Assembly: GCA_014729395.1 (NCBI GenBank)
Contig: WJJZ01000010.1
Location: 156,544 to 220,543, forward strand
Length of the DNA: 64,000 nucleotides
Direction: 5' to 3'
Source: Candidatus Magasanikiibacteriota bacterium
Lineage (GTDB): Bacteria > Patescibacteriota > Patescibacteriia > Magasanikbacterales > UBA922
Position numbers and translations under genes: made by a program. This document shows positions 3,087 through 55,042 of this stretch, piece after piece; within the stretch, counting starts at the first letter, position 1, and each line of letters begins with the position of its first letter. A model generated the notes under the pieces. The model saw only the letters and a list, made by a program, of their open reading frames with translations. It did no database searches and had not been told where the DNA came from.

Positions 3087-3115
3087 TTGACATTTTGTAT
3101 ATTTTGATCTATAAT
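3087..3115 (+). promoter_or_regulatory. Sigma70-type promoter driving the tRNA-Val transcription unit
   Basis: TTGACA (3087-3092), 17-nt spacer, TATAAT (3110-3115). A transcript would start near 3122 and include the partial tRNA repeat plus structured leader. Confidence 0.55.
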
Positions 3116-3203
3116 GTAAGGGATTTTTGTGATAAGCACGCCTAGCTCTCGCCTTCGTCCTCGCTTCGCTCGGACTATGGCGAGGCAGGCAGCTGGTTTT
3201 AAA

Positions 3204-3280
3204 GCACGCCTAGCTCAGCTGGTTAGAGCGCCTCGTTTACACCGAGGAGGTCAGGGGTTCGACTCCCTTGGCGTGCACCA
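3204..3280 (+). tRNA. tRNA-Val (anticodon TAC), CCA encoded
   Basis: Cloverleaf folded by hand: acceptor GCACGCC/GGCGTGC, D arm GCTC-AGCTGGTTA-GAGC, anticodon stem CCTCG/CGAGG with loop TTTACAC, T arm AGGGG-TTCGACT-CCCTT, discriminator A + CCA. Confidence 0.85.
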
Positions 3281-20967: not shown

Positions 20968-21040
20968 TGCAGGCGCGGTAGGAATCGAACCCACGACAAG
21001 AGTTTTGGAGACTCCTGTGATACCACTTCACCACGCGCCC
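20968..21040 (-). tRNA. tRNA-Trp (anticodon CCA), G73 discriminator, CCA not encoded
   Basis: Hand fold: acceptor GGGCGCG/CGCGCCT, D arm GTGA-AGTGGTA-TCAC, anticodon stem GGAGT/ACTCT with loop CTCCAAA, T arm GTGGG-TTCGATT-CCTAC. Confidence 0.8.
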
Positions 21041-21043
21041 ATG

Positions 21044-21292
21044 TTATTTGTATTTTAATCTTTTCATTAAACCTGTGTAAGCCGAGCCATATTGTTTCAA
21101 TTTCTTTTCACGTTCTTTAGCTAATTCTTCAACAATATATGATTCATAATAAATTAATTCCAACGGCCGTCTATATTTGGTTGACTTAACTTTCCCATCT
21201 ATATGATTTTTTAACCTTAATCTCAGATTGGATGTAAAACCTATATAAAACTTACTATCTTTTTTACTTTTTAAAATATATACATAAAACAT
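21044..21292 (-). CDS. GIY-YIG nuclease family protein (small stand-alone GIY-YIG domain)
   Basis: YVYILKSKKDSKFYIGFTSNLRLRLKNH = canonical GIY-x10-YIG with the R and N; 82 aa. Confidence 0.85.
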   Translation of the reverse strand: MFYVYILKSKKDSKFYIGFTSNLRLRLKNHIDGKVKSTKYRRPLELIYYESYIVEELAKEREKKLKQYGSAYTGLMKRLKYK

Positions 21293-21303
21293 AATTATCT
21301 ATT

Positions 21304-21379
21304 GTGGCGGTAGGAATCGCCCCGCCCTTCGCGAAGGGCGGGGTTGGAGACTCCTGTGATACCACTTCACCACGCGCCC
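21304..21379 (-). pseudogene. tRNA-Trp-derived pseudo-tRNA: exact copy of nt 1-37 of tRNA-Trp, a 24-nt perfect GC palindrome, and a copy of the tRNA 3' part (CGATTCCTACCGC)
   Basis: 36-nt identity to tRNA-Trp up to the anticodon loop, then CCCCGCCCTTCGCGAAGGGCGGGG, then the T-loop/acceptor 3' fragment; the acceptor stem can no longer pair. Confidence 0.7.
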
Positions 21380-30069: not shown

Positions 30070-30145
30070 TGGAGCCGACATGCGGGATTGAACCGCAGAC
30101 CTCATCCTTACCATGGATGCGCTCTACCAACTGAGCTATGTCGGC
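30070..30145 (-). tRNA. tRNA-Thr (anticodon GGT), CCA encoded
   Basis: Acceptor GCCGACA/TGTCGGC, D arm GCTC-AGTTGGTA-GAGC, anticodon stem CATCC/GGATG with loop ATGGTAA, T arm TGCGG-TTCAATC-CCGCA, discriminator T + CCA. Confidence 0.85.
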
Positions 30146-30283
30146 ATGACTTCGTTAAAACTACGTCATACGCAGCACGACTTCGTTAAAACTACGTCAC
30201 CACTCGTAATTTTCGTCATGCAACTGCTTGCCCGCCGAAGTCCGGAGCTTGTCGAGGAACGAAGGCGGGAGCTATGTCGGCAT
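30146..30283 (-). repeat. Structured tRNA-Thr leader: two tandem copies of a 22-nt upstream motif (GTAGTTTTAACGAAGTC core), a conserved about 48-nt CGCC...GGCG stem element, and a 15-nt repeat of the tRNA 5' end (ATGCCGACATAGCTC)
   Basis: Direct sequence comparison with the tRNA-Val leader (3135-3203) and the tRNA-Thr(TGT) upstream region. Confidence 0.6.
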
Positions 30284-32714: not shown

Positions 32715-32795
32715 TTATAACAACAATTAACAATTAACTTTTTGAATATAATTTTTTAAAGTCTCTATAATGTTAATTGTTAAAGGTTGACCTAG

Positions 32796-32868: not shown

Positions 32869-32920
32869 ACGACTTCGTTAAAACTACCTAGTACAAAGCA
32901 TGACTTCAGCAAAACTATTC
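32869..32920 (-). promoter_or_regulatory. Tandem 22-nt upstream motif (two copies about 30 nt apart) abutting tRNA-Thr(TGT), shared with tRNA-Thr(GGT)
   Basis: Plus strand ggcACGACTTCGTTAAAACTAC...GCATGACTTCAGCAAAACTAT versus 30145-30199 ggcATGACTTCGTTAAAACTAC...GCACGACTTCGTTAAAACTAC; the minus-strand core GTAGTTTTAACGAAGTC ends exactly 2 nt before tRNA +1 in both loci. Confidence 0.5.
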
Positions 32921-44507: not shown

Positions 44508-44705
44508 CGAATATACGCCTGCCTGCCGGCAGGCAGGGATAATTCAGATTTACGGATCGTTTAGTCTATAAACCAATAAAATATTTACTATCAACTGTCT
44601 GTATTAATAGAAGTCCTTTATTTGTTAATGATACACTGGACTAACACCAATCTATCCTAAAATCCGCACCTGCCTGCCGGCAGGCAGGTTATCCGTATAT
44701 CCGTA
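44508..44705. repeat. MITE-like element bounded by two identical 20-nt perfect palindromes CCTGCCTGCCGGCAGGCAGG (44518-44537, 44669-44688) with about 10-nt inverted flanks (CGAATATACG / CGTATATCCG)
   Basis: Direct reading; GC-rich palindromes in an AT-rich intergenic region between mreB and the GT4 gene. Confidence 0.6.
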
Positions 44706-53262: not shown

Positions 53263-53348
53263 ATATTTTTTTAATATAAATTTATTAATTTAATTTCCCC
53301 ATTCTCCCTCCCCTTCACAAGGGGAGGTGCCCGAAGGGCGGAGGGGTT

Positions 53349-54880: not shown

Positions 54881-55042
54881 TTTATAATTTTAAAATCTGT
54901 AAATTTCTTAAATCAAGCATCAACTTGATTTTTTGAATTAATAAACAAAAGTTCTTGACTAAACAGACATAAATGTGTATAATTTTGAAAGTTCAAAGTC
55001 GTTTGTTAATTGTTAATTGTCAAGTTGTTAATTGTTGTAAAT

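Follow-up and report, generated by a model that had tools for sequence, protein, structure and literature searches.

Hairpin-interrupted copies of tRNA 5' ends upstream of intact tRNA genes in CPR/Patescibacteria

We analysed a stretch of 64,000 nucleotides (nt) from a Candidatus Magasanikiibacteriota bacterium (contig WJJZ01000010.1, positions 156,544 to 220,543), and this whole stretch is called the window below. In it the genes for tRNA-Val(TAC) and tRNA-Thr(GGT) are each preceded by a truncated copy of their own 5' end, and each copy is interrupted in the D-arm by a GC-rich hairpin. We call the displaced fragment, the hairpin and the few tRNA nucleotides that resume after it the module. 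We argue that the hairpins form a family of small (about 40-48 nt) repeats of the Candidate Phyla Radiation (CPR, or Patescibacteria), and that the module is the footprint of an insertion that targets the D-arm and duplicates the 5' part of the gene. We put the probability of this reading at roughly 55%.

tRNA genes are classic landing sites for mobile DNA. To our knowledge, every described mobile element at tRNA genes rebuilds the 3' part. The events described here restore the 5' part instead and bear a recurrent, structured 42-nt element, and the old promoter-proximal fragment is left behind in the leader. Mobility of the element would point to an insertion or repair mechanism new to science, and might assign a role to the stand-alone GIY-YIG proteins that are so common in CPR bacteria. 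Full-text literature searches, which took in the Peribacteria genome paper, turned up no account of duplicated tRNA 5' fragments that carry a hairpin in the D-arm.

The tRNA-Val and tRNA-Thr(GGT) loci

The tRNA-Val locus is laid out as follows.

3087..3115, plus strand: sigma-70-type promoter TTGACA-17-TATAAT, with 12/12 positions matching
3135..3148, plus strand: displaced tRNA-Val 5' fragment AGCACGCCTAGCTC, equal to nt -1 to 13; an exact copy, 68 nt 5' of the gene
3149..3189, plus strand: 41-nt GC-rich hairpin insert, identified by covariance model and by homology to the Thr insert
3190..3198, plus strand: CAGCTGGTT, the resumed tRNA-Val copy (C13 or an extra C, then nt 14-21); the 8 nt after the C match the cognate D-loop
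3199..3203, plus strand: TTAAA, a 5-nt junction from the truncated copy to the intact gene
3204..3280, plus strand: intact tRNA-Val(TAC), called by ARAGORN; 67.5 bits with the Rfam tRNA model

A preliminary description of this DNA had already seen the perfect sigma70 promoter, the duplicated tRNA-Val start and a GC-rich element with a CGCC/GGCG stem, homologous to one in the tRNA-Thr(GGT) leader. All of these are real. The same description gave the element 55 nt and treated it as a unit adjacent to the tRNA repeat, and here it needs correcting. The true insert is 41-42 nt, and CAGCTGGTT beyond it continues the tRNA copy. There is one upstream copy of ~22 nt (nt -1 to 21), split between C13 and A14. 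The chance expectation for an exact 14-mer within 70 nt is about 1e-7. In the Val insert the outer helix is (C)TCGCC/GGCGA(G), the 3x3 internal loop TTC/TAT, the inner helix GTCC/GGAC and the tail GCAGG. The insert scores 33.1 bits (E = 2e-5) with the hairpin covariance model run with filters off, the Val copy having been in the training set.

No second promoter-like site is seen between 3115 and the start of tRNA-Val at 3204. Since the sole promoter lies upstream of the module, its position indicates that the module would be transcribed as the 5' leader of the pre-tRNA. RNase P cutting at the true +1 would discard the module with that leader. Leaders of 70-200 nt, with a decoy of the gene's own 5' end inside, would precede many tRNA genes of CPR bacteria. 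Such decoy leaders matter for annotation, for tRNA-seq mapping and for RNase P substrates in CPR bacteria. The orthologous tRNA-Val locus was sought through the neighbouring response regulator, and synteny is not conserved there.

The second module lies before tRNA-Thr(GGT).

30269..30281, minus strand: displaced tRNA-Thr(GGT) 5' fragment GCCGACATAGCTC, equal to nt 1-13; still joined to the native promoter and leader
30227..30268, minus strand: 42-nt hairpin insert of the same family as 3149-3189; 44 bits (copy in the training set)
30221..30226, minus strand: CAGTTG, the resumed tRNA-Thr copy
30146..30220, minus strand: 75-nt spacer in which the unit TGACGTAGTTTTAACGAAGTC[G/A]T occurs twice, at 30199-30177 and at 30168-30146
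30070..30145, minus strand: intact tRNA-Thr(GGT), called by ARAGORN and Rfam

The Thr and Val inserts are identical at 33/45 positions, and the closing pair of the stem covaries between them, being T-A in Val and C-G in Thr.

The Thr locus can be compared with a relative that has no module. L117 is a distant syntenic locus whose DUF2817 protein is 42% identical to the one in the window. It keeps the gene order tRNA-Tyr, Fpg, MscS, tRNA-Thr(GGT), DUF2817, and the body of its tRNA-Thr(GGT) (74 nt) is identical to that of the window, with no module before it. The promoter and leader of L117 align with the sequence 5' of the fragment in the window and not with the spacer adjoining the intact gene. 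Since the native leader aligns upstream of the fragment, the fragment must be the old 5' end of the tRNA-Thr gene. The block of hairpin, D-loop nucleotides, spacer and new nt 1-13 is therefore extra. It is also dispensable, because an orthologous locus with an identical tRNA does without it.

The spacer at this locus deserves a separate remark. The native leader of tRNA-Thr(TGT), GTAGTTTTAACGAAGTCGT (32869-32887, minus strand), occurs twice in the tRNA-Thr(GGT) spacer (30146-30199, minus strand). A leader unit common to both tRNA-Thr loci suggests that sequence has been exchanged between them.

The orientation of the modules can be separated from that of the surrounding genes. GC skew is negative on the plus strand across the whole window, and the minus strand holds nearly all genes. 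tRNA-Val and its module are on the plus strand, against the prevailing gene orientation, and the Thr module is on the minus strand. The orientation of the module thus follows the tRNA and not the prevailing gene orientation or the GC skew.

Distribution of the module and signs of spread

Two patterns were used to look for further copies. The first was built from the insert alone, without any tRNA flank, and was scanned over one genome per species. It gave 12 matches, of which 2 are real. The other 10 are judged to be chance because they lie in GC-rich genomes, lack the flanks and have no tRNA nearby. The real matches are in Peribacteria and Peregrinibacteria metagenome-assembled genomes (MAGs), upstream of tRNA-Pro and tRNA-Ile. 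Both inserts sit after (T/G)AGCTC and before CAGYTGG of a tRNA 5' fragment, flanks that the pattern had left unspecified. On the second of these MAG contigs tRNA-Lys also bears a diverged copy of the module, with the outer stem CCGCC/GGCGG changed to CCACC/GGTGG. The second pattern was anchored on the AGCTC and CAG flanks, and its metagenome scan returned 92 contigs. A link to phages was also considered and rejected, as a scan of viral contigs gave one chance match only, in a GC-rich contig.

In the window, the two MAG contigs and the metagenome contigs there are 57 instances of real copies (52 distinct) in 50 loci. A tRNA on the same strand lies 13-438 nt downstream (median 61) in 49/57 of them. 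The remaining 8 comprise 3 at contig ends, 1 inverted relative to its tRNA and 4 at non-tRNA sites. Among 48 fragments, 36 are exactly nt 1-13 of the tRNA and 12 have decayed by 1-4 mismatches. The tRNAs involved belong to 16 anticodon species and ten amino acids, all with the TAGCTCAG D-arm. The nucleotides after the insert track the cognate tRNA even when its D-loop is unusual (CAGTCCGGT for Lys, CAGGTAG for Phe). In every one of the roughly 50 modules, similarity to the tRNA is lost 4-11 nt beyond the insert, and there is no full-length interrupted copy. The truncated promoter-proximal copy consists of the first 17-24 nt of the tRNA gene, and it is followed by a short spacer and then by the intact gene for the same tRNA.

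All named sources of the module are CPR/Patescibacteria, namely Magasanikbacteria and Peregrinibacteria. The copy number is low: the 1.25-Mb Peribacter genome contig has a single strict match, and the other contigs have 1-2 each. The covariance model of the hairpin is a direct handle for a genome-wide census. One can imagine that features this small are a chance similarity or an assembly artefact. That idea is refuted by the recurrence of the module in dozens of independent assemblies, with covariation, and its probability is negligible. The preliminary description had proposed a search beyond the two loci and a covariation analysis of the copies, and both came out in favour of a family associated with tRNA genes.

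Several other loci also point to insertion. Tandem modules occur in L048, L068, L103 and L047. In L103 (minus strand, oriented coordinates 2350-2540) the fragment, the flanks and a 28-nt spacer are 100% identical between the tandem modules, and the inner hairpins are unrelated. L004 has a nested second member of the family, ten bases further along the same fragment. A hairpin copy is also found in a D-loop fragment of tRNA-Tyr, and several weaker copies are at non-tRNA sites. Close pairs of inner hairpins have their members at different tRNA isotypes in 26/40 cases. In L092 (1625-2726, contig Ga0156703_11) the module and a copy of the tRNA leader lie on the strand opposite tRNA-Val(CAC), and a 263-amino-acid (aa) open reading frame (ORF) without a Pfam match stands between the inverted module and the tRNA. 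Given that placement, a protein gene may now be under the control of the old tRNA promoter.

Two copies of the hairpin family in L086 (144-181 and 3311-3348) lie within CATTCGAC repeat tracts and not in tRNA. Their junction once more reads ...AC^CA..., a hint that the target may be a loose NC^A.

Every 5' copy found bears a GC hairpin, at position 13, 22 or 36. In L027 (tRNA-His) a GC hairpin with CCCGCC...GGCGGG ends interrupts the 5' copy at position 22, and hairpins with the same ends interrupt Tyr (L051) and Trp copies at position 36. The D-arm element is thus one of several hairpin types found in displaced tRNA copies.

We propose the following scenario. A process at the DNA level would target the conserved D-arm sequence AGCTC^AG of tRNA genes. 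The insertion would be viable only when the 5' part of the tRNA gene is duplicated. Hairpin variants would then spread between tRNA loci by transposition or by short-patch gene conversion. This is close to a suggestion in the preliminary description, that a mobile element inserts into tRNA D-loops after TAGCTC. The recurrent C13/A14 position in 16 anticodon species, the hairpins shared between loci, the tandem and nested copies and the empty orthologous site all agree with that suggestion. It must be modified in that the functional tRNA is never interrupted, only a displaced truncated copy, and in that mobility is something we infer, no transposase or recombinase having been found among the ORFs of the window.

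The hairpin as RNA or as folded DNA

The consensus fold, drawn from 43 distinct copies, begins with an outer helix CCGCC/GG(A)CGG, which a further C-G pair closes. Inside it come a 3x3 internal loop (TTC/TAC) and an inner helix of variable sequence and length, and a conserved tail GCAGG follows on the 3' side. Insert length across the family is about 39-48 nt. In the alignment 94% of cells are paired in the named structure, compared with 83% in shuffles and 21-62% with slid partners. Double changes fill 57 cells, against the 18.5 expected in shuffles. Rfam has no match to the module or to the non-tRNA copies, either at gathering or at permissive (E <= 10) thresholds. The only families it finds are tRNA and the L10 leader, and neither overlaps the module. 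No curated covariance model of a known cis-regulatory leader, be it the T-box or another Rfam family, fits the module.

Covariation of this strength could mean that the hairpin is a leader RNA that benefits the host. A subset of tRNAs might use it as a processing signal, to stabilise the 5' end, to insulate folding or to bind a protein. The constant orientation and the co-transcription from a sole promoter agree with this, and so does the conservation of the internal loop and the tail. A GC-rich sequence that persists in AT-rich genomes also agrees with it. In the orthologous pair L042/L061, 41/42 positions of the hairpin are identical and only 60/90 of the spacer, and the hairpins of two tRNA-Pro paralogues are identical at 37/39. 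Another orthologous pair has 37/42 in the hairpin and 71/79 in the spacer, however, and in two orthologous pairs besides L042/L061 the hairpin changes as fast as the spacer. Taken together the pairs give a mixed result on purifying selection.

Other observations do not favour a leader RNA at all. G.U and A.C departures from pairing are equally frequent, 12 each, and the opposite (bottom) strand, where the internal loop reads GNA/GAA, folds better in 45/52 copies. Neither would be expected if selection acted on RNA of the tRNA strand. The orthologous locus with an identical tRNA has no module, and several tRNAs of the AGCTC type lack a module on contigs that bear one elsewhere. Tandem, nested, inverted and non-tRNA copies exist, and the 12/48 decayed fragments point the same way. 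The preliminary description had also offered a processing or regulatory leader. The position of the promoter bears out the presence of the module in the pre-tRNA, but a function for the host is not supported, and we regard the leader RNA as unlikely.

The better folding of one strand would fit a hairpin that acts as DNA. The module could be the footprint of folded single-stranded DNA that integrates in the manner of CTX-phi attP(+) or integron attC sites, with a three-way junction that mimics the D-arm and strand exchange at C13/A14. CTX-phi integration shows such properties, and like the CTX-phi and attC systems the module combines a hairpin-forming site, a regenerated target and tandem arrays with, in some cases, an inverted arm near one junction (PMC4246890, PMC3442271). 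In about a quarter of spacers (~12) the cognate D-arm and acceptor recur in inverted orientation, and the mismatch at the centre is conserved. In L077 the inverted copy is 19 nt, AACCAACT-TCG-CTAATTGC, and such a copy is also present in L047, L068, L070, L042/61 and L037/38/53/79. From these sequences the fragment, the hairpin and the inverted arm could fold into a three-way junction. But the inverted arm reaches p <= 0.01 in just 5/49 spacers and is absent from both modules in the window. No recombinase gene was found among the ORFs of the window, and no circular or free form was seen. Only 13-438 nt separate the repeats, and there is no attC R-box, no attC consensus, no dif-like site and no phage or cassette cargo. 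We consider a footprint of folded single-stranded DNA quite improbable.

Two other pairings were tried and rejected. A general second helix between the remainder of the D-loop and the spacer is found only in a minority of modules. A pairing partner near the module for the tail GGCAGGCAG is found in only 1/54.

The tail has a different connection, to a palindrome elsewhere in the window.

44518..44537, no strand assigned: perfect 20-nt palindrome CCTGCCTGCCGGCAGGCAGG, with a second copy at 44669-44688

The two copies are 131 nt apart, between mreB and a glycosyltransferase gene. The palindrome has GGCAGGCAGG in common with the 3' tail of the hairpin insert, and the tail GGCAGGCAG is half of it. 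Near-identical palindromes are present in 5 other module-bearing loci (L018 twice, L079, L089, L076 and L098). The sequence shared by tail and palindrome suggests recognition at the DNA level. The 20-nt palindromes themselves may be terminators or another small repeat family.

Several points weigh against insertion into the D-arm as we propose it. A Pfam scan of about 50 ORFs in the 64-kb window found no transposase, integrase or HUH enzyme. The copy number is unlike that of typical families of miniature inverted-repeat transposable elements (MITEs) or repetitive extragenic palindromes (REPs). There is no clear target-site duplication, just an ambiguous single C at the junction. No mechanism tested accounts for a copy with its start near +1 and its end 4-11 nt beyond the insert. 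In genomes of 34-37% GC the hairpin retains its fold, the sequence of its internal loop and its high GC, and this retention, together with the 41/42 against 60/90 identity in L042/L061, would fit purifying selection. Finally, the metagenome set was anchored on the flanks and is biased towards tRNA contexts.

One can go further and suppose that these modules represent a new class of tRNA-gene-targeting mobile DNA. It would recognise the D-arm (AGCTC^AG), integrate through a folded hairpin or three-way junction, supply the 5' end of the gene and depend on an enzyme that has so far had no link to mobility. The enzyme could be one of the 80-aa GIY-YIG proteins that stand alone, or else a recombinase that is common in CPR bacteria and has escaped recognition. 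Integration of this kind would mirror every known case of tDNA integration. We think a new class distinctly unlikely.

Nuclease cassettes and comparison with known systems

The tRNA-Trp gene of the window has a related layout that includes a nuclease gene.

21302..21379, minus strand: disrupted tRNA-Trp copy, in which a perfect 24-nt GC palindrome (21320-21343) separates nt 1-36 from the 3' part of the T-arm and acceptor
21044..21292, minus strand: ORF for an 82-aa GIY-YIG nuclease (PF01541, 58 bits), between the disrupted and the intact tRNA-Trp
20969-21040, minus strand: intact tRNA-Trp

The layout recurs in L109, a Doudnabacteria contig, where the palindrome has compensatory differences. 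A Falkowbacteria contig (L105) has the identical palindrome directly before tRNA-Trp and no disrupted copy. In 4 other loci a GIY-YIG homologue is found at most a few hundred nt from a hairpin module, and in two of these the ORF begins right after the hairpin-disrupted 5' half of tRNA-Val or tRNA-Tyr. The ORF stands between a disrupted copy and an intact tRNA at 3 loci (the Trp locus of the window, L089 and L109). In L051 (Tyr) a second disrupted copy follows the GIY-YIG ORF. A nuclease ORF in or next to a disrupted target is thus found at the tRNA-Trp locus of the window, L089, L051 and L109. The Val and Thr modules have no ORF and no nearby nuclease gene.

The phage GIY-YIG enzyme SegB cleaves within tRNA genes, and through recombination this leads to tandem amplification of a tRNA segment (PMC13096335; PMC2330249). 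It is a tested precedent for nuclease-triggered duplication at tRNA genes, and by analogy the CPR proteins could plausibly act in the same way. As in phages T4 and T6, GIY-YIG genes stand next to tRNA genes, here as small ORFs in the window and in four related loci. Unlike SegB the CPR proteins are 80-95 aa, consist of the catalytic domain only, are chromosomal and are known here from sequence, and the Val and Thr modules have no such ORF. The GIY-YIG cassettes share the arrangement of a disrupted copy followed by an intact gene, so breaks by the nuclease are a plausible source of the duplications. In our scenario small GIY-YIG nucleases would break the tRNA gene and unequal repair might duplicate its 5' part.

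It is worth asking whether repair alone would be enough. Nucleases would cut tRNA genes, unequal or fold-back repair would duplicate them, and the hairpins would be unrelated GC palindromes that accumulated in the scars. The GIY-YIG cassettes that adjoin modules and the SegB precedent speak for this, as do the different types of GC hairpin in pseudo-copies at positions 13, 22 and 36. But about 50 independent modules have the same element at one exact position and in one orientation, which passive accumulation would not produce, no 5' tRNA duplication free of an insert was found among the contigs examined, and no nuclease gene is near the Val and Thr loci. We hold a pure repair scar to be very improbable. 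Simple tandem duplication of the leader and 5' part was tried as well and is rejected for most modules, as their spacers are not copies of the upstream leader.

Among the closest known systems are the tDNA islands and prophages that tyrosine integrases place in tRNA or tmRNA genes. Those known to us duplicate the 3' part of the tRNA gene, and their crossover lies in the anticodon loop, in the T-loop or at the 3' end. In such islands the target is split, the copy adjacent to the element restores an intact gene and the displaced fragment is at the other end (PMC4383910). The module resembles these integrase-borne islands in having a regenerated gene and a displaced direct-repeat fragment, and tandem arrays are possible since the target is rebuilt. 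It differs in that the 5' part is duplicated (nt 1-13/21), the junction is in the D-arm and a conserved hairpin sits at that junction. There are also only 13-438 nt between the repeats of the module and no integrase, and none of the about 50 ORFs of the window matches Phage_integrase.

Small palindromic repeats are the next group to consider. These include REPs, bacterial interspersed mosaic elements (BIMEs), MITEs and mitochondrial GC clusters, and the traits by which we compare them are general knowledge of those families. Like them the hairpin is a short, GC-rich, imperfect palindrome that is non-coding, carries compensatory changes and is present in several copies per genome. It also co-occurs with other palindrome families that have GGCAGGCAGG in common. 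Unlike them it has a very low copy number, a nearly exclusive position in tRNA fragments and a fixed orientation relative to the tRNA. The terminal inverted repeats of a MITE are present, as the outer helix CCCGCC/GGCGGG forms the ends, with a 4-5 nt tail (CAGG) on one side only. The many dispersed copies and the autonomous insertion sequence of a MITE were not found in the contigs searched, and no transposase was found within the 64-kb window. The palindrome of a REP with its associated transposase (RAYT) is likewise present, but its copies are few, a terminal GTAG is missing, and within the 64-kb window nothing matches Y1_Tnp.

Introns are the remaining comparison. Group I introns, archaeal bulge-helix-bulge introns and split tRNAs also have extra sequence at a defined position of a tRNA, with GC helices beside the halves. 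The insert differs in being far too small for a group I intron (39-48 nt), in having no ribozyme core and in being followed by an intact gene. With the interrupted copies ending 4-11 nt beyond the insert, splicing would have nothing to join, and ARAGORN calls only the intact genes downstream. Because the interrupted copies are truncated the insert is not an intron.

The module shares traits with each of its nearest systems, and it fails at least one defining test of each. We class it as a variant of tRNA-gene-targeting mobile DNA.

Two further repeats in the window may be recorded here. A GC-rich double hairpin, CCTCCGCCCTTCGGGCACCTCCCCTTGTGAAGGGGAGGGAG, lies between rplJ and rplL (53304-53347, minus strand) in an AT-rich spacer, and it has CCGCCCTTCG in common with the tRNA-Trp palindrome. 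The sequence GTTAATTGTTAATTGTTG is found directly upstream of both tRNA-Tyr (~32715-32745, minus strand) and tRNA-Glu (~55005-55040, plus strand), and could be a shared leader or promoter-proximal element.

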